64,000 bases of DNA from a virus (taxonomy: Duplodnaviria > Caudoviricetes). The stretch lies in the IMG/VR virus record IMGVR_UViG_3300006133_000005, positions 1 to 64,000 of that record. One strand, given 5' to 3'. This document shows, in pieces, positions 3,149 through 15,898 of this stretch (position 1 is its first letter; each line of letters opens with the position of its first letter). The notes beneath the pieces were generated by a model. It did not search any database. It was given only the letters and a program-made list of their open reading frames with translations, and had not been told where the DNA came from. Both the position numbers and the translations under genes were made by a program.

Positions 3149-3661
3149 TTAAACACCTTTCAATACTGCTTTTTCTTTTCTAAGACTTTCTTGACAGTCT
3201 AAATACCTTTGATTTAATGAACCTCGATATTTTAATTCATAGCTCTTAAGCTTTTCTACAAACTCTCCGTCTATTAAAATATCTGTTACTTTTAAAAGGT
3301 CTAACCACTCAGGTCTTTCACTGTAAGCGCCTCTTAAAAGCTCTTCAAAGGTGTAACCTGTATAGGTTACTATATTTAAGTCTCTTTCTAAAGACTTAAC
3401 CAACTCTGCAAACTTTGTCAGTGCAGTTGCTTGCTCAAAAGGCTCACCTCCACTGAATGTAATTCCGTCAAGTAGTGTGTTACTCTTTATGTCACTTAAC
3501 AACTCTTTAAAATCAACTTCTTTACCTCCGCTGAGAGAATGTGTTTGAGGGTTATGACAACCTTTACAGTGATGAGGACAACCCTGTACAAATACTGTAT
3601 ACCTAAGACCCTCTCCGTCAACAATAGAATCATTTACTACTCCGGCTATTCTTAATTTCAT
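3149..3661 (-). CDS. nrdG: Anaerobic ribonucleotide reductase activating protein
   Basis: DGEGLRYTVFVQGCPHHCKGCHNP (CxxxCxxC), FSGGEP, RGSLNQR; adjacent to nrdD. Confidence 0.97.
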   Translation of the reverse strand: MKLRIAGVVNDSIVDGEGLRYTVFVQGCPHHCKGCHNPQTHSLSGGKEVDFKELLSDIKSNTLLDGITFSGGEPFEQATALTKFAELVKSLERDLNIVTYTGYTFEELLRGAYSERPEWLDLLKVTDILIDGEFVEKLKSYELKYRGSLNQRYLDCQESLRKEKAVLKGV

Positions 3662-3720: not shown

Positions 3721-6054
3721 TTAGTTCTTATTTCTTACATTATGTTTTACTCTGTCTCTCTCCTCAGCTCTTTTAGCGTTGTTAAATCTGTCAAGAGTTC
3801 CTACGAGATAACCTGTAATACGTCTGATACGCTCAAAAGGTCTGTCATTCTCTTCTCTACCACATTTAGGACAAGTATCACCAATTATACCTGTGAACCC
3901 ACATTCGGGGTCACGGTCAACAGGGTGGTTGATAGAACCATAACCAATACCACTTTCTTTCATACATCTTATAATCTTTTCAAATGCAGGAAGATTTTCA
4001 AGTGGGTCACCGTCAAGCTCTATATAACTTATGTGTCCACCGTTTGTAAGCTCATGGTAAGGCGCTTCGATTTTTATTTTATCCAAAGCATTGATATTGT
4101 AATAAACAGGAACATGGAAAGAGTTAGTATAGTAGTCCCTATCTGTTACTTCTTCAATAACTCCATATTTTTCTCTGTCTATCTTTACAAAACGTCCAGA
4201 AAGTCCCTCGGCAGGTGTAGCAATAAGAGAATAGTTAAGACCTGTCTTTTCACTTTCAAGGTCAACCCTCTTTCTCATATAAGAGACTATTTCGAGTCCC
4301 AGCTTTCTTGCTTCTTCACTCTCTCCGTGATGCTTTCCGATAAGGGATTTAAGCGTTTCTGCAAGACCAATAAATCCAACAGCAAGAGTACCATGTTTTA
4401 ACACTTCTTCTACTGTATCATCAATTGAGAGCTTATCAGAATCAATCCATACACCCTGTCCCATAAGGAAAGGATAATTTCTCACTTTCTTACAGCACTG
4501 AATTTTAAACCTCTCATTCAACTGGTCAATAGTAAGGTCGAGCATATCCTTTAGCATTTCAAAGAACTTATTTATGTCGTGCTCAGCCTTTATAGCAAGA
4601 CGAGGTAAATTGATTGAAGTAAAGCTCAAATTACCTCTACTGTACGCTATTTCTCTCGTAGAGTCATAATTATTACCTAAAACTCTTGTACGACAACCCA
4701 TATATGCTACTTCTGTTTCTGGGTATCCCTTTTTATAGTATTGCAAGTTAAAAGGGGCATCAATGAATGAGAAGTTGGGGAATAACCTCTTAGCTGATAC
4801 CCTCATAGCTAACTTAAACAAGTCATAGTTTGGGTCTGTTGGGTTATAGCTAACTCCCTCTTTAACTTTAAATATGTGAATAGGGAATATAGGTGTTTCA
4901 CCATTTCCCAGTCCTGCTTCAAGAGCGTAAAGAAGATTTTTAATTACAAGTCTTCCTTCTGGTGAGGTATCAGTTCCATAGTTTATGGAGCTAAACGGGA
5001 CTTGTGCTCCTGCTCTGCTGTGCATGGTGTTGAGATTATGAACAAAAGCTTCCATAGCTTGATATGTAGCTCTTTCAGTCTCTAACAAAGCACTATCCAC
5101 TGCAAATTTCTGTACCTTGTCACACACACATAAAGAGTATGATTTATGAAGTTCAGCAAGTTCATGAATCCTGTAGTCATTATCGTCTGAAATTACAGGC
5201 TTAACACCCTTTGTGTCATACACACATTTAGAAATATTTTTTGCTAAATCAAAGGCATCCTTGTAGCTTAAATCTTCAACAATAAGAGAAAGACCTTTTG
5301 CTAAGTTCTCTACATACTTTTTTTCATAAGTCTTTCTTACTCCCTCTGACATAGCATAGTCAAAGTTAGGAACACTTTGACCTCCGTGTTGGTCATTCTG
5401 ATTAGACTGAATGGCAATACACGCAAGAGCCGAATAACTGGAGATGTCATTAGGTTCTCTCAAATGTCCATGACCTGTAGAGAAACCACCTTTAAAAAGA
5501 CGGACTAAATCAATCTGACAACAAGTAGTTGTAAGAGTGTAAAAATCCAAGTCATGTATATGAATGTCTCCGTCAGAATGAGCCTTAGAATGCTCTTTCT
5601 TAAGAATGTTCATAAGATAAAACGCTTTAGCAGAGGAAGAACCATACTTAAGCATAGTTCCCATTGCTGTATCTCCGTCAATATTAGCGTTCTCTCGCTT
5701 TGTATCACTGTCCTTTGCGGAGCTGTATGTAAGCTCACCTAAGACTTTCATAATATTTGTTTTACTGTCACGAATATTAGTCCTGTCATTTCGGTATAAA
5801 ATGTAAGCTTTAGCAGTTGTAGTGTGACCTCGTTCAATGAGTACTTTCTCAACAACATCCTGAATCTCTTCAACTGTGGGTATCTCATCTTTGTGATACT
5901 TCTCATAAAGTCTTACTACCTCATTTGCTACTTTCTCGGCTTCATTCTTATCTGTACCTCCGACAGAACGAGCGGCTTTAAAAACAGCTACTGTAATTCT
6001 GCTGACATCAAAAGGGACGACACGTCCGTCACGCTTTATAATACTTGTTATCAT
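3721..6054 (-). CDS. nrdD: Class III anaerobic ribonucleoside-triphosphate reductase with N-terminal ATP cone
   Basis: IIKRDGRVVPFD ATP cone, TTCCQID, YMGCRT, RIRRITGYL glycyl-radical motif. Confidence 0.98.
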   Translation of the reverse strand: MITSIIKRDGRVVPFDVSRITVAVFKAARSVGGTDKNEAEKVANEVVRLYEKYHKDEIPTVEEIQDVVEKVLIERGHTTTAKAYILYRNDRTNIRDSKTNIMKVLGELTYSSAKDSDTKRENANIDGDTAMGTMLKYGSSSAKAFYLMNILKKEHSKAHSDGDIHIHDLDFYTLTTTCCQIDLVRLFKGGFSTGHGHLREPNDISSYSALACIAIQSNQNDQHGGQSVPNFDYAMSEGVRKTYEKKYVENLAKGLSLIVEDLSYKDAFDLAKNISKCVYDTKGVKPVISDDNDYRIHELAELHKSYSLCVCDKVQKFAVDSALLETERATYQAMEAFVHNLNTMHSRAGAQVPFSSINYGTDTSPEGRLVIKNLLYALEAGLGNGETPIFPIHIFKVKEGVSYNPTDPNYDLFKLAMRVSAKRLFPNFSFIDAPFNLQYYKKGYPETEVAYMGCRTRVLGNNYDSTREIAYSRGNLSFTSINLPRLAIKAEHDINKFFEMLKDMLDLTIDQLNERFKIQCCKKVRNYPFLMGQGVWIDSDKLSIDDTVEEVLKHGTLAVGFIGLAETLKSLIGKHHGESEEARKLGLEIVSYMRKRVDLESEKTGLNYSLIATPAEGLSGRFVKIDREKYGVIEEVTDRDYYTNSFHVPVYYNINALDKIKIEAPYHELTNGGHISYIELDGDPLENLPAFEKIIRCMKESGIGYGSINHPVDRDPECGFTGIIGDTCPKCGREENDRPFERIRRITGYLVGTLDRFNNAKRAEERDRVKHNVRNKN

Positions 6055-7537: not shown

Positions 7538-9604
7538 TTATTCATTAGATTCTCCTTTATCTGTAGCTTTAATTTCTACTACATCTGTAACTTCATTATC
7601 CTCATTATTAGATTGTCTGTTCATCATAGAGCCAAATAGCTTCTCCATGATACCACCACTCTGTGGGTTAGTAATAGATGTAGTTGTTTCTTCTGTGCCG
7701 TCAGACCTTAATACCCTTGTCTGTCTTAAGACTTCTGGACTACCTGTCTCATACATCTGCTTTAACATCTGCATATACTTTATGTTTGTGTCCATAAGCT
7801 GTGAAACTTGTGGGTCAACAGCACCATTGAGAGTTTCAAAAATCATTGCTTTCTGCATTCGGGTCATATTGTATTCTACAATACCCTGCATAGCTTGAAT
7901 AATGTCTCCCATACTTCGTGTATCAAACCTGTCAAACATCTTGTTATAAGCACATACATACCCTGATTTGTACTCAGGACATTTAGCCGCCGCATAACAA
8001 GTATCACATGATAACTTAGGGAATTTTTTAGAGTAAACCCTTTTAGGCTTTCGTGCTATCATCTGTCCCTTTACAAATTTACCATGTTCATCAAAGGTGG
8101 GTATAATTTCAGCCTTTTTGAATATTTCCTCGTCAAGACTGTCAATTTCGGGAGCTTCACTGTCTAATTCCACAGATTTATCAGGTAGTAAGCTATGAAG
8201 TCGGGACTTAATTTCTTCCTTTGACAACTCTATGTATTCCACTTCATCATCTTGTACATACTCTTCTTCTTTACGTTCCTTGACAATGCGGTCAAAATTA
8301 GTTCCAAGATTCAAAAGCTTATCATTGTTACCAGAAACACAGTCAGTAAAGAAGTTAATCAGGTCCTTAACTTTGGTTTCTTTATCAGGTACTATTCTGT
8401 TGACATAAAGGTCGTGCAATTCTGTGATAAGACATTCCTGTTCTGAATCATTGTACCAGTCCACCATTTTTTGATGTGTTCCTGTGTTCCAATTTAAGAA
8501 AGTTGTAATATCATACAGGATGTTTCTTGCACCCTCTACTTCGGGATTCACATTCATTTTGACACAGTAGTCTTTAACTCCCTCTGTAGAGCCGCTATCA
8601 AACCACTCGACTGTAGGGAAAAAGTCCTCTGGAAGATTGTTAATATCAGTTTTAATAGCCTTTGGCTTAAGCCAGTACAACAATGACTTGAGTCTATCTG
8701 TAATGTAATTTTCAGCATCAATGAACGCACCTAAATTAGCTCTCATCATAGACGTAGGGTCTTCATTAAGTAACAAATCCCTGTCAAGAGAATACCTGTT
8801 ACATATTTCATCAAGATACTTATTACTTTGCCACTTGTCTTTTTTAAGTCTGGTCATTTTATTTCCAGTCCAGAAGTTCATTTCGCCATACTGTAGTCCG
8901 ACAAGCCATGTAGTAGAGTCTACTGTATAAAAAGGAAGTTCGGGTAGTAATGCTGTTTTTGTCATTCCAAATCCGTGTGCTAAAGAGTTATACTTTTCAG
9001 TGTATTTAAGCATCTCTTTGAATTGACTTAAATCCATTACTTTATCATCAGAAACAGAAGAAAATCCGACATATGGGTATCTCTTACACATGAAATCCCA
9101 TACGTCTAATCCGTCGTCATGGTATACAAAGCAAACGGGTATTCCTGTTTCAAGCATAAAAGGTTCAAAGTATTCTCTTCTCCACCTATTAACTACATCA
9201 AGTCCTACAAGATTCTGTAAGTCAAGTTCAGCCATTCCAAATATGCTGTCTTTATGCTTTCTCGCCCAATTTAAGTAAGACTGTATGTGCTGTTCCCACT
9301 GTTCTACAGTGTAGTCATGATACTCTGGATTAGCCATATAGGTGTAAGCACCTGAGTCTATGAACAGACTAATATCAGGATATGTTTTAAGCTGTTTAGC
9401 TCCTTTGGTTCTTAAGTACTCATAAGACATAAGAAAATTACGTATGCCCATGTTATAGCATATTTCAAGATAAGCAGGATTTTCTACACCAGAATAAAAC
9501 ATAGAAAATCCTCTCTTATAATCCATAACTTCTTTTAGGTTAGCATACTTAGGCTTTTCACTTGAAACTTTACCTGTGTTTTTACTCCTTTTTACAAGTT
9601 TCAT
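7538..9604 (-). CDS. dpdA: DpdA/TGT-like 7-deazaguanine DNA transglycosylase with a long Cys4-containing C-terminal extension
   Basis: FIDSGAY, FVYH, AHGFGMT, FYTVDSTTW match TGT-fold motifs with both catalytic Asp; start overlaps the folE stop; C-terminal CDTC-x5-C-x8-C. Confidence 0.75.
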   Translation of the reverse strand: MKLVKRSKNTGKVSSEKPKYANLKEVMDYKRGFSMFYSGVENPAYLEICYNMGIRNFLMSYEYLRTKGAKQLKTYPDISLFIDSGAYTYMANPEYHDYTVEQWEQHIQSYLNWARKHKDSIFGMAELDLQNLVGLDVVNRWRREYFEPFMLETGIPVCFVYHDDGLDVWDFMCKRYPYVGFSSVSDDKVMDLSQFKEMLKYTEKYNSLAHGFGMTKTALLPELPFYTVDSTTWLVGLQYGEMNFWTGNKMTRLKKDKWQSNKYLDEICNRYSLDRDLLLNEDPTSMMRANLGAFIDAENYITDRLKSLLYWLKPKAIKTDINNLPEDFFPTVEWFDSGSTEGVKDYCVKMNVNPEVEGARNILYDITTFLNWNTGTHQKMVDWYNDSEQECLITELHDLYVNRIVPDKETKVKDLINFFTDCVSGNNDKLLNLGTNFDRIVKERKEEEYVQDDEVEYIELSKEEIKSRLHSLLPDKSVELDSEAPEIDSLDEEIFKKAEIIPTFDEHGKFVKGQMIARKPKRVYSKKFPKLSCDTCYAAAKCPEYKSGYVCAYNKMFDRFDTRSMGDIIQAMQGIVEYNMTRMQKAMIFETLNGAVDPQVSQLMDTNIKYMQMLKQMYETGSPEVLRQTRVLRSDGTEETTTSITNPQSGGIMEKLFGSMMNRQSNNEDNEVTDVVEIKATDKGESNE

Positions 9605-10197
9605 ACAGGAGTTACACCTCCTGTTAAGTCAACCTTAAAACCATTATTGAAAGCTATTTGATTATTGACCTTGGTTTTAAAGTAGTGTGTTTCAGTGTTA
9701 CAGTCACTTTCTGCTCCTCTGCACATAACGCAAGTATGTGTTGCAGTAAGTTCAACAGCTAACCACTCAGGCTGTAACAGATTAAACAAGTAGTCTCCTA
9801 CTTCGTCTGTTAGTCTTTCCTGTAATTGTGGCTTCTGTGAAAAATATTTAACTACTCTTGGAATTTTTGAAAGACCAATGATTTTGTTAGAGGGCATATA
9901 AGAAATGGTTGCAATACCCATAAAAGGCAACCAGTGATGTTCACAAGTAGAATGAAACTCAATACCTCTAACAGTAACAGGCTGTTTAATTCCACTACTC
10001 GAAATATAATCAAAAAGTTTCATCTTGGAATTAAGCTCCTCTATATTGTTGTTATTCCTGTTCCTAAAAAGTTCGTTGCAATACATCTTTGCTACCCTTA
10101 ATGGTGTATCAATGTTACTATGTGTTTTATCCAGTTCAAGAATGTCAAACACAGCCTCAAGGTGTTGTCTTATTTCTTCCACTTTAATTTCATTCAT
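9601..10197 (-). CDS. folE: GTP cyclohydrolase I
   Basis: DTPLRVAKMY, STCEHHWLPF, GLSKIPR, QLQERLT, HTCVMCRG; start moved to the ATG after the GGAGGT RBS. Confidence 0.97.
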   Translation of the reverse strand: MNEIKVEEIRQHLEAVFDILELDKTHSNIDTPLRVAKMYCNELFRNRNNNNIEELNSKMKLFDYISSSGIKQPVTVRGIEFHSTCEHHWLPFMGIATISYMPSNKIIGLSKIPRVVKYFSQKPQLQERLTDEVGDYLFNLLQPEWLAVELTATHTCVMCRGAESDCNTETHYFKTKVNNQIAFNNGFKVDLTGGVTPV

Positions 10198-10231
10198 TTT
10201 AATTACCTCCATATTTTCTGCTGGTGTCTTA

Positions 10232-10299: not shown

Positions 10300-10527
10300 T
10301 TACTTAATTTTTACCTTATCAAGGTTCATAATTGTTGCAGGATTTTTTCGACCGGTAATAGGGGTAGGAGTAGGGGTGTTGTTCAAAGCTTTTGTGCAAT
10401 CATCAACAGAATCTTTAATACATTTCTGAGCTCTTTTAAGTCTTTGGGGATTTCTGATAATTTCCTGATAACGTCTTAACGTATCAGCATCTGCTCTCGT
10501 TGCCCAGTCAACATCTTCTCTATACAC
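10300..10527 (-). CDS. Small basic hypothetical protein, 75 aa
   Basis: AGGAG RBS then GTG TAT AGA; W-x4-DA-x2-L...I...P-x-RL-x2-A pattern; the track start at 10614 overlaps another gene. Confidence 0.7.
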   Translation of the reverse strand: MYREDVDWATRADADTLRRYQEIIRNPQRLKRAQKCIKDSVDDCTKALNNTPTPTPITGRKNPATIMNLDKVKIK

Positions 10528-10540
10528 TATATAAACTCCT

Positions 10541-10702
10541 TTACTTAGATTTCTTTGTATACGACGAAACAGGAGTTGAAGCTGGGTCAATGTTAGTATA
10601 CTTCGTAGAATCAAGAGCGCCTAAAGTGGCTTTATTCTTAGGAACATTAGGCTTACCTGTTGTACTCTTTGTCTTAATGGGTGATTTACAAGCCTCATTC
10701 AT
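10541..10702 (-). CDS. Lys/Ser/Thr-rich 53-aa protein, not in the ORF track
   Basis: GGAGGT RBS; MNEACKSPIKTKSTTGKPNVPKNKATLGALDSTKYTNIDPASTPVSSYTKKSK. Confidence 0.7.
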   Translation of the reverse strand: MNEACKSPIKTKSTTGKPNVPKNKATLGALDSTKYTNIDPASTPVSSYTKKSK

Positions 10703-10729
10703 GTTAATTTACCTCCGTTATTTATTATA

Positions 10730-10903
10730 TTAACCTCTGCCTCTTTGGGTTCTGGTGGTTGCTGTGTTACCACCTCTTACCCTATTGATAGCATTTCTTA
10801 CTGTCTGGGTTACACGACCTATAATACCTCCTCTTCTCTGAGGAGCATTTCCGCTGGTATTTGACTTATTACCGTTTCTGGGCTGTGCATGAACAGTGAA
10901 CAC
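10730..10903 (-). CDS. Arg/Gly-rich basic peptide B with VHA leader
   Basis: AAGGAGGT RBS 7 nt before GTG at 10903 (the GTG at 10912 lies inside the RBS); FTVHAQP ... TTRTQRGRG. Confidence 0.75.
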   Translation of the reverse strand: MFTVHAQPRNGNKSNTSGNAPQRRGGIIGRVTQTVRNAINRVRGGNTATTRTQRGRG

Positions 10904-10929
10904 TTTGCTCACCTCCTTTATTTAATAGA

Positions 10930-10957
10930 AAACCACCACTTAACTAAGTGGTGGTTT
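10930..10957 (-). terminator. Intrinsic terminator between peptides A and B
   Basis: aaaccaccactta / taagtggtggttt stem with T tract on the minus strand. Confidence 0.7.
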
Positions 10958-10994
10958 GTGTTGGTAACTTCTTCTGTTGCAGAAAGAGTGTAGA

Positions 10995-11177
10995 TTAGCC
11001 TCTTCCTCTTGTTCTGGCAGTGTTAGTACCATTGTTGCCGCCACGCTGTACTCTTACTCTACGAATAGGGGAAGTCTGACCACTCTGGGTTCTTGCTGTA
11101 CCTACTACGGTACTACCACCACCGCCACCCTTACTCTTAGGCTGTGCGTGAACAACCATAGCAAAAAGTCTTTTCAT
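10995..11177 (-). CDS. Arg/Gly-rich basic peptide A with VHA leader
   Basis: GGAGGTG RBS then MKRLFAMVVHAQP ... TARTRGRG; paralogue of peptide B. Confidence 0.8.
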   Translation of the reverse strand: MKRLFAMVVHAQPKSKGGGGGSTVVGTARTQSGQTSPIRRVRVQRGGNNGTNTARTRGRG

Positions 11178-11287
11178 GCTATTCACCTCCATTTTAGTCC
11201 TTAAAGGGTACTTATGTAATTAGGTGTATGAGAGAGAATGAAGTAAACCTCAATACACTACCTTTAGACTATAACAATATTATACCC

Positions 11288-12874
11288 TTATTTGTCTTTA
11301 TTGTCAATAGAGTTGCAACAATTTCTGCCCGAAAAATTACAAACTGCATTTTTAAGACTATCATAATCCTTTATTTCAGAAAGGTCAATACCTGTTTTTG
11401 GTCTTTCATAGGCACAATTACCACAACCATATACTTTTCCGTCATAGTTTACAAAGATTGAGGTATAACCTGATGTACATACAGGGTCTAAGTCAAAACA
11501 TATAGGTCTATCAATGTACTGTGGGGTATCATATTTAAACATATCTGAGTACTTTTTAGTGAGATTCCTATACTTAAAAGGGATTGAGAACATCACCAAA
11601 GGTATTGGAAATTCAGATGAGACAACTTCATTTATAACAGAATCATACAAGTCCTCACTTATAGAGTAGCTCTTGTCACAACCGCCCCAGTCTTCAATAG
11701 GCTTTATGTATACTGATGATACACCTAATTTATGGAACTTAACAAGGAATTTATTAAGTTCAAACCAATTTTTATTGTGTAGGTCTATTGAAATAGAAAC
11801 TGGAAGTCCATTTTCAATAAGATATGTCAGTGTGCTATCCTTAACAGTAAAAGGTCGATAGGCACCTCCGTCAAAAGATACAGTAATTTCCTGTAGTGTG
11901 CTGTCAATTAAAGAGGGAGCATACTTATCAAGGTTCTTTCCATTTGTAATCATGCTGAAATATATATCTTGATAGTCTTTAAACTGCTCTAAAAGGTTTA
12001 TTACTGTATCATCAAATAGAGGTTCTTTTCCGAATATATCGAACTTCTTTATACCGAAACTGTAAAGCTTATATACAATATCTGGTAAAGACATTGTGGG
12101 TTTATCTGTGTGGTCTACACCTGTCATTAAGCAATAGGGGCACTTTAAGTTACAGCTATTATTTATGCTTAACTTAGCACTTGTAATCTTACCTCTTTTT
12201 CTTACAAGGTCTATACATTTGTCACCGTCACCCACTCTATGGTAAGTGTCCTCCAAATCATTAGAATCATCAAAGTACTCTGAATACTCAGAAATGAGTT
12301 GACAGTTAGAGCACATATCCCCCTCATTCTTTTCAGTTTTAAAGCAAGAGCAGAAGTCATTCAGTTTAATACCATACTTACGAGCCAGCATAAATATATA
12401 CTGTTTATCATAAGTAATAAACGGAGTACAAAACTCTAAATCGCATAGGCTCATAACCGCTGAAATCTTCTCAGAAAATTCAGCGGTAGCATCAGGGTAC
12501 GGGTCTTCGGGAGGTTTAATTATAGCACCATACACTTTCACAGCACCTATACTTTGTGCATATGATGTTGCATAAGATATAAAAATCATATTCCGCATTT
12601 CAAGGTATAAAGAATTATATGATTCCTCTGATTCGCTATCAACTATAGAGCTATTAGACCATTTAAATGGATTGATAGTTATTTCTTCCCACTTGTAACC
12701 CAGTTTGGTTGCTACATCTCGTGAAGCTTTTCTCTCAAATTCTAAAGCTTTTTGACCATAATCAAAAAACAGTGTATGTACTTCTACATTAGGAAACTTT
12801 TCATTTAAGTGGTGCATAAGTACAACACTATCTAATCCACCACTGTTGAGTGCTACTATCTTTACCTTATTCAT
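11288..12874 (-). CDS. queC: 7-cyano-7-deazaguanine synthase (QueC) fused to a radical SAM/SPASM-like domain
   Basis: N-terminal: LNSGGLDS, FFDYGQ, RNMIFIS, YPDAT, SCF...CSNC; C-terminal: CNLKCPYC, FGKEPL, ITNG, CTSG...DGKVYGCGNC. Confidence 0.85.
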   Translation of the reverse strand: MNKVKIVALNSGGLDSVVLMHHLNEKFPNVEVHTLFFDYGQKALEFERKASRDVATKLGYKWEEITINPFKWSNSSIVDSESEESYNSLYLEMRNMIFISYATSYAQSIGAVKVYGAIIKPPEDPYPDATAEFSEKISAVMSLCDLEFCTPFITYDKQYIFMLARKYGIKLNDFCSCFKTEKNEGDMCSNCQLISEYSEYFDDSNDLEDTYHRVGDGDKCIDLVRKRGKITSAKLSINNSCNLKCPYCLMTGVDHTDKPTMSLPDIVYKLYSFGIKKFDIFGKEPLFDDTVINLLEQFKDYQDIYFSMITNGKNLDKYAPSLIDSTLQEITVSFDGGAYRPFTVKDSTLTYLIENGLPVSISIDLHNKNWFELNKFLVKFHKLGVSSVYIKPIEDWGGCDKSYSISEDLYDSVINEVVSSEFPIPLVMFSIPFKYRNLTKKYSDMFKYDTPQYIDRPICFDLDPVCTSGYTSIFVNYDGKVYGCGNCAYERPKTGIDLSEIKDYDSLKNAVCNFSGRNCCNSIDNKDK

Positions 12875-13252: not shown

Positions 13253-13663
13253 TTATTTATTATTAAACCACTTAAATGGAAGATTGTACTTTACCATGAT
13301 TAAAGTCTTAGCCAATTGTTCAAGCTTTTGATGTTCCATTGTATCTACATACATTTGCTCATACAATCCGCTACCCTCTTCCCAGTTATACTTACAGTGT
13401 AAAAGTTCATGTACCAAAGTACACTCATCACACACCTTTGTAATAAACTCACTTCTCGCCTCATCAGGTATAACCGCAATGCGTATTAAACTACTTTTAT
13501 TTATGAACTCGAACTCATTTGTTCCTGCACATCCGTCTATATCTTGTTGTGGAACAAGTTTTGCTTTTATGTTCCAATCATTAAGGAACAATTTTTTCTG
13601 CCACCACTGAAGTGATTTCTGTAAAGTCTCCTCCGTGAACTTCATAATAGGTCCTTTACTCAT
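13253..13663 (-). CDS. Putative zinc metallopeptidase (HExxH)
   Basis: TLVHELLH; start codon overlaps the queE stop (TAATG). Confidence 0.6.
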   Translation of the reverse strand: MSKGPIMKFTEETLQKSLQWWQKKLFLNDWNIKAKLVPQQDIDGCAGTNEFEFINKSSLIRIAVIPDEARSEFITKVCDECTLVHELLHCKYNWEEGSGLYEQMYVDTMEHQKLEQLAKTLIMVKYNLPFKWFNNK

Positions 13664-14334
13664 TACATAACCCCCAAACACTTGTGCATCTGTATTTGTA
13701 CCCTGATATTAAAAAGTTTATCATCAAGTAACCATTGTACAAGGTCTTTTGCAACTGGACTAAAGTACTCTCCCTGTGAACGGTAATAAAAAACGGGACT
13801 CACAAGAATTTTTGCAGGAGTAGGGTATGTTTTAAGGACCTGTTTCATAAAGTCATAGTCATGTCTATTTCCTATAACGAATTTTACTTCGTCCCTCTGC
13901 TTTAACACCATAAGGTTTTCATAAATGTTTCTGTGAGAAACACCACTTGTAGGACATTTAATGTCCATTATAAATTTCAGCTTAGAGGGGTAGTAAAGGT
14001 CGGTAGGGATTTTAGTACAACCATTCGTCTCAATGGATACGTTACAGTCATAGTCCGAGATAAATTCAAGTGCAAGCTGATAGACCGCTTCCTGCTGAAT
14101 AAGTGGTTCACCACCAGTGATACAAATATTCTTGCAACCATACTTAACAACTTCTTGAACTAAATGCTCAACTGATATTTTATGTCTGTCCTTTTTAGTC
14201 TGGGGTTGGTCGCAGTAAGTACACGTCATATTGCAACCATATAGTCTTATAAAAACACAAGGCAGTCCTGCACCTGTGCTTTCACCTTGTATACTTAAAA
14301 ATACCTCATGGTAATAAAGAATACCCTCTGACAT
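13663..14334 (-). CDS. queE: 7-carboxy-7-deazaguanine synthase (radical SAM)
   Basis: FLSIQGES, CNMTCTYCD, ITGGEPL, IETNG, QMHK. Confidence 0.95.
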   Translation of the reverse strand: MSEGILYYHEVFLSIQGESTGAGLPCVFIRLYGCNMTCTYCDQPQTKKDRHKISVEHLVQEVVKYGCKNICITGGEPLIQQEAVYQLALEFISDYDCNVSIETNGCTKIPTDLYYPSKLKFIMDIKCPTSGVSHRNIYENLMVLKQRDEVKFVIGNRHDYDFMKQVLKTYPTPAKILVSPVFYYRSQGEYFSPVAKDLVQWLLDDKLFNIRVQIQMHKCLGVM

Positions 14335-14336
14335 AT

Positions 14337-14741
14337 TTATTCACCTCGATATTCAGCATAGCTATCTTCTGTCTCCCACAACTTGACGGAGTACACCTTA
14401 TAGTCACTGTTAGGGAGAATGTCCTCAGACAGCATATCATATATATGCACCGTCATTACTTCTGCTGTAGGTTGTGAAAAAAAGCTATTAAGATTAGAGT
14501 GGTCGTAAATATCGAGAATTTTATGCTTTACTCTCCTCTTAATATCACTAAAGTCGCACACCATAGCTTCTGTTGCAAGAGTTTCACTATTTATGGTGTT
14601 TGGGTCGATATTTCCTACAAATGTAACTTCGAGCTTGTAACTGTGCCCATGTAACTGAGAACACTTCCCCTCATAGTTATTGAGACGGTGACAAGCTTCA
14701 AATGTCATTCTTTTTGTTACATACACTTTTCTTTCTGCCAT
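14337..14741 (-). CDS. queD: 6-carboxy-5,6,7,8-tetrahydropterin synthase
   Basis: FEACHRL, LHGHSY, DHSNLN, PTAE. Confidence 0.95.
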   Translation of the reverse strand: MAERKVYVTKRMTFEACHRLNNYEGKCSQLHGHSYKLEVTFVGNIDPNTINSETLATEAMVCDFSDIKRRVKHKILDIYDHSNLNSFFSQPTAEVMTVHIYDMLSEDILPNSDYKVYSVKLWETEDSYAEYRGE

Positions 14742-15445: not shown

Positions 15446-15898
15446 TTAATTACAGCCTTTCTCCAACAAAATTTTTGAACTATCTGCACATTCAAAGAAG
15501 TCCTCTAACTTCATTACTATGTAATCTTGTGAGCTGTTATGCTTGTGCATAATAACACAAGGTTTCTTATCCTTTGGACAATCACTTTCAGCTTGTCTAA
15601 GCCATGTAGGTAAAGACCACGTTTGAGCATTTTTGCATTCAACATGAAGCATTAAATCGACGTCCTTATCAGCTGATACAATGTCACCTCTGAACTCATC
15701 AGCTTTAACAGACTTCTTTGCAAATCCTCCGCTTTGCGGTGTGCGTACAAGGTCAATACCAAAGAACTCCTTAAACTTCTTTGCTACTGTTCGTTCAAAG
15801 CTTGCTCCCTTATTACGACTTCTTTTACCTCTTTTTCTGTTCTGTTCTTTAATTTCCTCTTTTGTGGGAGTGTTAGGTAATTTCTTCTTTAATTTCAT
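15446..15898 (-). CDS. PD-(D/E)XK Holliday junction resolvase-like nuclease
   Basis: SRNKGASFER, GDI, VECK, W..QA motifs. Confidence 0.8.
   Translation of the reverse strand: MKLKKKLPNTPTKEEIKEQNRKRGKRSRNKGASFERTVAKKFKEFFGIDLVRTPQSGGFAKKSVKADEFRGDIVSADKDVDLMLHVECKNAQTWSLPTWLRQAESDCPKDKKPCVIMHKHNSSQDYIVMKLEDFFECADSSKILLEKGCN

Follow-up and report, generated by a model that had tools for sequence, protein, structure and literature searches.

A phage QueC fused to a second radical-SAM enzyme within a putative 7-deazaguanine DNA-modification cluster

We describe a phage protein of 528 amino acids (aa) in which QueC, an enzyme of 7-deazaguanine synthesis, is joined to a radical S-adenosylmethionine (SAM) enzyme with a twitch-like iron–sulfur (Fe-S) tail. 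Its open reading frame (ORF) lies in a stretch of 64,000 nucleotides (nt), referred to here as the window, from IMG/VR virus record IMGVR_UViG_3300006133_000005, a 77,739-bp genome with direct terminal repeats that is judged complete. Judged by sequence and predicted fold, the second half is a complete enzyme of the SPASM/twitch group, twitch-type and distinct from QueE. It appears catalytically intact. In four of five lineages it is fused to QueC, and in the rest it is a separate gene of the same operon; fused or stand-alone, it seems to occur only in one type of deazaguanine gene cluster. That cluster reads as a 7-deazaguanine (preQ0) DNA-modification cluster, folE-queD-queE-dpdA, with the full gene set for forming 7-carboxy-7-deazaguanine (CDG). 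We put it at slightly short of an even chance that the radical SAM is a tailoring enzyme coupled to QueC, altering the deazaguanine base before a long DpdA inserts it. The final product of the pathway is probably a guanine substitute not yet catalogued.

Integrity and architecture of the fusion

The initial annotation, made from the letters of the window alone, had read a single 528-aa ORF with QueC followed by radical SAM, a reading that a stop or frameshift between the two domains would overturn. The ORF is intact, all of the quoted motifs lie at exact positions, and the fusion is kept across the family. Pfam places QueC at residues 5–192 (E 3.6e-31, 108.8 bits, cut-off 22) and Radical_SAM at residues 236–340 (E 1.2e-8, 35.8 bits, cut-off 29.5). 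An AlphaFold2 model of the full-length protein, built from 17 homologues, has two globular halves with helices 189–227 between them (mean predicted local distance difference test, pLDDT, 83; predicted template modelling score, pTM, 0.73). This 528-aa protein was also called on several independent contigs of 59–80 kb. Because the same protein recurs on independent contigs and 112 of the 146 family members retrieved are intact fusions, a frameshift or assembly artefact is excluded, on comparative grounds, as the origin of the fusion.

The radical-SAM half is additional to QueE, as the initial annotation had also held, since a separate QueE is encoded nearby (Table 1). The genome contains three radical-SAM domains, those of QueE, the fusion and an NrdG-type activase beside NrdD, and exactly one QueC domain, that of the fusion. 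No QueF was found in the complete genome, where the sole sub-threshold match was FolE itself.

The radical-SAM half and its twitch-like tail

CNLKCPYC at residues 241–248 supplies the CxxxCxxC motif (C241, C245 and C248), and GKEPL at residues 282–286 stands as the SAM-binding GGE-type motif. Together with a partial TIM barrel these are the features of the radical-SAM superfamily, and a C-terminal Cys-rich auxiliary Fe-S domain, the mark of the SPASM/twitch subgroup, follows them (DGKVYGC at residues 478–484, CC at 519–520). Residues conserved in at least 90 per cent of 143 sequences are N238, C241, C245, C248, G282-K-E-P-L286, T310-N-G312, N314, S333, R340 and D364, joined in the tail by C466, G479, G483-C484 and C519. 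CxxxCxxC, GKEPL and C466/C484/C519 are conserved in at least 93 per cent of these sequences, which span 20–96 per cent identity. This pattern of residue conservation argues for selection on catalysis.

Pfam SPASM has no match in the fusion protein, and three Cys rather than seven fit a twitch domain. C466, C484 and C519 are the probable ligands of a second, three-ligand [4Fe-4S] auxiliary cluster. In a profile search of PDB sequences, MoaA was the top radical-SAM match (E 2.4e-20, residues 221–506, including DGxxYGC), with C466 and C484 aligned to its auxiliary-cluster Cys C261 and C278. The third auxiliary Cys of MoaA is absent, and C519, near the C-terminus, takes its place in the phage family. 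We also compared a model of this domain alone (pLDDT 85, pTM 0.84) with 48,161 solved chains. Fold scores were Z 21.7 for SuiB, 20.1 for PqqE, 19.8 for SkfB, 19.4 for MoaA, 18.9 for BlsE, 18.8 for anSME and 18.4 for viperin. Structural alignments to SuiB, PqqE, SkfB and MoaA extend through the C-terminus and, with the conserved Cys, bear out the twitch-like tail that the initial annotation had described.

Several identities for this half were tried and rejected. MoaA equivalog models gave 67.9, 66.9 and 51.5 bits (cut-offs 231, 325 and 284), covering the N-terminal part only. The QueE model TIGR03963 gave 27 bits against a cut-off of 260, and the bona fide QueE is a separate gene; the idea that the fused domain substitutes for QueE in one related locus (L004) also fell, QueE being there but under-called. 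TIGR01210, presumably the RaSEA family model, gave no genome match with the threshold relaxed to E <= 1, whereas three control genomes scored above its cut-off. No ArcS partner was seen in the genome. The comparison with RaSEA that had been drawn at the outset therefore stands as a functional likeness and not as homology.

The QueC half

The PP-loop SGGLDS at residues 11–16 is intact, and the half also carries YGQ (39–41), MRN (93–95), YPD (126–128) and PFxxxxK (151–157). Against the QueC equivalog TIGR00364 it scores 94 bits, with a cut-off of 150.3. In place of YxQxHxxE, the canonical QueC motif and a signature set by experiment, the sequence reads Y39-G-Q-K-A-L-E-F-E, with the His missing and the Y-x-Q-x5-E spacing given for Cap9 (PMC13329287). 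R94-N95 of the VPxRN motif are kept and V-P is not; Y126-P-D of the YPDC motif is kept, with Ala for Cys. The gene clusters with queD and queE, as canonical queC does, and the family profile scores Bacillus subtilis QueC (76 bits) above Cap9 (43 bits).

The zinc-site Cys are arranged as C175-S-C177-x10-C188-x2-C191, against the canonical C-x8-CxxCxxC, in a part of the AlphaFold2 model where confidence is low. In the more divergent members of the family the canonical C-x(n)-CxxCxxC is present. The initial annotation had called this zinc motif atypical for want of its last Cys; that Cys of CxxCxxC is indeed absent, but the extra C175 keeps four in all, and the zinc site probably retains four Cys. 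The QueC motif deviations are clade-wide and also present in the plain QueC of Bacillus phage BCD7, so they are not tied to the radical-SAM domain, and we rejected the idea that they track its presence.

Family, synteny and split forms

In a word-indexed search we recovered 18 clusters of QueC+Radical_SAM proteins, which share 28–96 per cent identity with the window protein; with a profile of the radical-SAM half the family grew to more than 140 clusters. The 146 members retrieved comprise 112 intact fusions, 28 intact stand-alone proteins (about 270–300 aa), four partial sequences, one N-terminally truncated sequence and one degenerate fusion (P0022). An ESM Atlas cluster holds 268 QueC+Radical_SAM proteins, 94 per cent of them viral, and the genomes that carry the fusion are those of uncultured phages of roughly 70–85 kb. 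Among 185,579 species genomes we found no orthologue and no prophage copy, the two weak partial matches coming from termite-gut metagenome-assembled genomes. In an exhaustive profile search of 1.84 billion representatives, only generic radical-SAM/SPASM proteins ranked below the family, some of them tandem and some fused to glycosyltransferases, and no characterized protein that would hint at function was among them.

For synteny we used loci fetched from assemblies in Logan, ENA, JGI and IMG/VR that had a strong radical-SAM match. Every one that was long enough has the gene order queD-queE-(variable)-queC(-rSAM)-small peptides-folE-(rSAM)-dpdA, where rSAM is the radical-SAM module, and the DpdA proteins of these loci are 36–60 per cent identical to that of the window. 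In the split loci (L003, L005 and L021) a plain QueC of about 205 aa is accompanied by a radical-SAM gene between folE and dpdA, the position of stand-alone genes wherever the context was read. The L003 gene overlaps both neighbours (dpdA by 20 nt), and the gap to dpdA in L005 is 21 nt. In a FastTree phylogeny of 143 radical-SAM domains, one branch (support 84) sets all 28 stand-alone forms apart. As the stand-alone forms make up one clade, a single change of state explains the pattern of fused and split genes. The window protein falls among the fused forms, in the subclade closest to the stand-alone one.

What lies between queE and queC differs across the clade, and the variable genes there in related loci had no Pfam match. 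One locus (L012, 6235–8933) has two extra genes in this position (462 aa and 296 aa), likewise without a Pfam match, ahead of queC-rSAM. In another (L014, 7540–9206) the fusion gene is called as two ORFs, one for a QueC N-terminal fragment of 134 aa and one for a protein of 401 aa with the QueC zinc region and radical SAM, which points either to a frameshift or to a split of a second kind. A gene for an FMN_red-type flavoprotein is inserted between folE and dpdA in L002 (11113–11661) and could serve as electron donor to both radical-SAM enzymes. A single instance of a different QueC fusion (P0025, 643 aa), in which the partner is a nucleoside 2-deoxyribosyltransferase domain (PF05014), turned up in ENA data.

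The gene cluster and its phage

All genes of the region are on the minus strand. In order of transcription they encode a RusA-like resolvase, an S26 peptidase, SpoVS, QueD, QueE, a 142-aa HExxH protein, a 118-aa protein (phrog_9079), the fusion, four small basic ORFs, FolE and the DpdA-like transglycosylase (Table 1).

Table 1. Features of the window discussed in the text, with positions counted from the first letter of the window.
Feature	Position	Strand	Support or remark
QueC–radical SAM fusion, entire ORF, 528 aa, stop included	11288-12874	-	Intact ORF
QueC (PP-loop ATP pyrophosphatase) domain, residues 1-200	12275-12874	-	Pfam PF06508; PDB profile match 3bl5, E 2e-20; motif positions
Helical linker, residues 201-229	12188-12274	-	AlphaFold2 model: helices 189-227, pLDDT 63-88
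Radical-SAM core, residues 230-445	11540-12187	-	Pfam PF04055; conservation in 143 sequences; fold Z 18-22
Twitch-like C-terminal Fe-S domain, residues 446-528	11291-11539	-	MoaA alignment and Cys conservation
RusA-like resolvase	15446-15898	-	
QueD	14337-14741	-	Pfam PTPS, E 2.3e-32
QueE, separate radical-SAM CDG synthase	13663-14334	-	Pfam Radical_SAM and Fer4_12; orthologues in all related loci
142-aa HExxH (HELLH) protein, possibly SprT-like	13253-13681	-	Overlaps the end of queE; system membership uncertain
Small basic proteins encoded as an island from queC-rSAM to folE	10300-11192	-	Position conserved; also in BCD7, which lacks the radical-SAM module
Class-A Arg/Gly-rich peptides, two	10995-11192 and 10730-10912	-	Also in L001-L006 and BCD7
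Two further small basic ORFs	10541-10702 and 10300-10614	-	Conserved in related loci
FolE (GTP cyclohydrolase I)	9601-10212	-	Pfam E 7.5e-44
Long DpdA-like DNA guanine transglycosylase, 688 aa	7538-9604	-	phrog_887, E 1.1e-68; 43% identity to BCD7 YP_007005872
Anaerobic ribonucleotide reductase NrdD	3721-6054	-	E 5.8e-205
NrdG-type activase	3149-3661	-	Fer4_12, E 2.3e-39

The class-A peptides contain no Cys and are of low complexity, with conservation limited to a hydrophobic leader at the N-terminus, which is short and ends in (F/Y/H)-A (MLFLNVFA is one case). This leader resembles the N-terminal extension that Prp cleaves from Firmicute ribosomal protein L27 and from the capsid proteins of staphylococcal phage 80-alpha, a likeness that would suggest, by analogy, leader removal and a Bacillota host. 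The two further small basic ORFs share, close to a Pro-rich stretch, a motif that reads K-N-x-A-T-x-G/M-x-L. The 142-aa HELLH protein is present in five of the 13 related clusters that we compared (the window, L001, L002, L003 and L020), and BCD7 does not have it. Pfam gave no match for this protein; in the ESM Atlas its look-alikes are viral clusters that carry the automatic name SprT-like (score 0.97). Past the part that resembles tRNA-guanine transglycosylases, the DpdA-like protein continues for about 370 aa, a feature common to the 757-aa DpdA of BCD7, and its residues 526–619 have a weak PHROG match to a terminase small subunit family (E 2e-5).

From NrdD and NrdG the host is probably an anaerobe, which is compatible with oxygen-sensitive radical-SAM chemistry. 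The nearest cultured relative is BCD7 (NC_019515), whose DpdA, FolE, QueD, QueE and QueC appear in a supplementary table by Hutinet et al. 2019 (PMC6884629). Its module has the same order of RusA-like resolvase, S26 peptidase, SpoVS, QueD, QueE and QueC, followed by two Arg/Gly-rich peptides (gp023 and gp024; L010, 7851–8328), FolE and the long DpdA (YP_007005872), 43 per cent identical to the one in the window. BCD7 differs in having an aerobic class Ia ribonucleotide reductase where the window phage has NrdD and NrdG, so the addition of the radical SAM coincides with an anaerobic lifestyle. In the literature on BCD7 and deazaguanine we found no report of its modified base.

A proposed role and its alternatives

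If the radical SAM tailors the base ahead of DpdA, the QueC domain would adenylate and amidate CDG to 7-amido-7-deazaguanine (ADG), perhaps continuing to preQ0. The tethered radical-SAM domain would receive the free base from QueC or, alternatively, feed QueC. The base may sit on the open iron of the auxiliary cluster, as guanine does in MoaA; by that analogy the three-Cys site suggests a purine-like ligand held directly on the open iron. The 5'-deoxyadenosyl radical would then modify C8 or the side chain at C7, after which the long DpdA would put the altered base into phage DNA, where it could serve to evade restriction and modification-sensing defences. The prevalence of the fusion can be taken as a Rosetta-stone argument for coupling to QueC. 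Radical-SAM tailoring has precedents in nucleic-acid base pathways, namely RaSEA (PMC11298593) and gp53 of phage M6 (PMC8989533). The fusion lies inside a deazaguanine DNA-modification cluster, and the undescribed deazaguanine derivative that the initial annotation had entertained is the most economical reading.

Several observations weigh against such pre-insertion tailoring. CDG, ADG and preQ0 have no aliphatic C-H, and ordinary hydrogen abstraction therefore lacks an obvious target on the free base; what remains would be N-H or O-H abstraction, radical addition, or action on an appended group. The basic residues that we take to bind the triphosphate and guanine in the MoaA–GTP structure are R17, K163, R192, R266 and R268. 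In the alignment to MoaA a basic residue is kept only at R17, the other four positions being non-basic, and a MoaA-style binding mode is for that reason an analogy only. The fold neighbours are near-tied between peptide maturases and small-molecule enzymes. BCD7 encodes QueC as a plain protein of 215 aa and lacks a second radical SAM, and the degenerate fusion P0022 (L006, 4449–5948) keeps the radical-SAM half but has lost CxxxCxxC and all of the C-terminal Cys. From these last two cases it follows that the step is dispensable or the domain non-catalytic.

These same two cases favour a module that supports QueC, QueE or DpdA without changing the base, for example as a scaffold, an alternative nitrogen-donor route or an electron supply, so that the DNA would carry deoxy-preQ0 (dPreQ0) or deoxy-ADG (dADG). 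RaSEA offers a parallel, being structurally needed, even as apo-protein, for ArcS activity (PMC11298593). The strong conservation of the catalytic Cys, GKEPL and the auxiliary Cys across the family speaks against a purely supporting part, and we regard it as unlikely. We would give a similarly small chance to a radical SAM that acts after insertion, on dPreQ0, dADG or an appended group within DNA. The split-form gene directly upstream of dpdA in L003 and L005 fits that order of events, as does M6 gp53, which isomerizes a glycine-appended thymidine in DNA (PMC8989533). However, the 112 fusions are to QueC, a free-base enzyme, and not to DpdA; Pfam finds no nucleic-acid-binding domain; and the stand-alone forms are minimal, at 270–300 aa.

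The initial annotation had also raised modification of the neighbouring peptides. In that case the radical-SAM/twitch half would be a peptide or protein maturase for the Arg/Gly-rich peptides or for a Cap9-like deazaguanine–peptide conjugate. Such a role would account for best fold matches that include maturases for ribosomally made, post-translationally modified peptides (SuiB, PqqE, SkfB and CteB, Z 18–22), for small conserved peptides that always adjoin queC, for the Cap9-type spacing of QueC (Y-x-Q-x5-E and PF-x4-K, with the canonical His absent) and for the possible SprT-like HExxH protein encoded upstream. The entire replication module is syntenic, though, so the position of the peptides is by itself weak evidence. 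The same peptides and QueC deviations occur in BCD7, where no second radical SAM is encoded, which makes a peptide-maturase role less likely, and in the split form the radical-SAM gene follows folE, away from the peptides. Pfam detected no RRE or PqqD domain, the stand-alone forms start at the radical-SAM core, and the peptides offer no Cys and only a short conserved leader. Peptide modification is weakened by these findings, and we consider it improbable. More improbable still is a combination of the two ideas, in which QueC with its Cap9-type spacing may ligate CDG to some amine besides ammonia, either an amino acid or the N-terminus of a leader-cleaved Arg/Gly-rich peptide, the radical SAM tailors the appendage and DpdA installs the conjugate, giving a deazaguanine in DNA that bears an amino acid or peptide. 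Some explanation outside those considered here has a modest claim, about that of the supporting role. The tailoring of a QueC-coupled base before insertion remains the reading that we favour.

Comparison with known systems

Eight 7-deazaguanine DNA bases have been catalogued in phages, each with a recognizable enzyme signature, and the pairing of QueC with a radical SAM is not among these signatures (PMC10516641). We found no mention of a QueC–radical-SAM protein in the phage-deazaguanine and QueC literature, including PMC10516641 (2023) and PMC13329287 (2026). A tblastn search of the INPHARED cultured phages with the fusion and the stand-alone radical SAM did not recover the architecture, returning matches to the QueC part and weak generic radical-SAM matches; a megablast search with the cluster gave no match. 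This agrees with the earlier remark that the architecture was not known from characterized phages. The pairing is conserved in more than 100 lineages of uncultured phages. Should the module change the base, it would count as the ninth modification or a later one and would bring a new reaction of radical-SAM type on a deazapurine, with relevance to restriction evasion, to defences that sense modified DNA and to DNA-labelling tools. BCD7, which is cultured and lacks the module, is a ready baseline for comparison.

A QueC fusion as such is already known in phages in the form of Gat-QueC, and what appears new here is a tailoring module in a cluster of the DpdA/preQ0 type. In Gat-QueC (phage 9g, base dG+; PMC10516641) QueC is likewise fused within a phage DpdA cluster, and the added domain sets the final base. 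There the addition is an N-terminal amidotransferase, whereas the window fusion has a C-terminal radical-SAM/twitch half and no glutaminase. MoaA (GTP 3',8-cyclase; PDB 1TV7, 2FB3) resembles the phage domain in its three-Cys auxiliary site, with two of the three Cys positions in common, as well as in DGxxYGC and in fold (Z 19.4); it belongs to molybdopterin synthesis and the phage domain to deazaguanine synthesis.

RaSEA is a radical SAM complexed with an enzyme of the 7-deazaguanine pathway and finishes the C7 side chain, but it acts on preQ0-Lys in tRNA together with ArcS and has no detectable homology to the phage domain (PMC11298593). Cap9 and QatC (PMC13329287; bioRxiv 10.1101/2025.04.06.647259) share the QueC fold and PP-loop, and Cap9 also the Y-x-Q-x5-E and PF-x4-K spacing (9nto_B match, E 2.4e-10). 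Canonical QueC nevertheless scores higher for the phage domain, whose neighbours are FolE, QueD, QueE and DpdA, not CD-NTase and Cap10 or QatA, QatB and QatD. Finally, M6 gp53 (PMC8989533) is also a radical SAM within a phage DNA-hypermodification cluster, but it is spore photoproduct lyase-like and acts on DNA-bound glycinyl-thymidine, and so differs from the phage enzyme described here in both subgroup and base.

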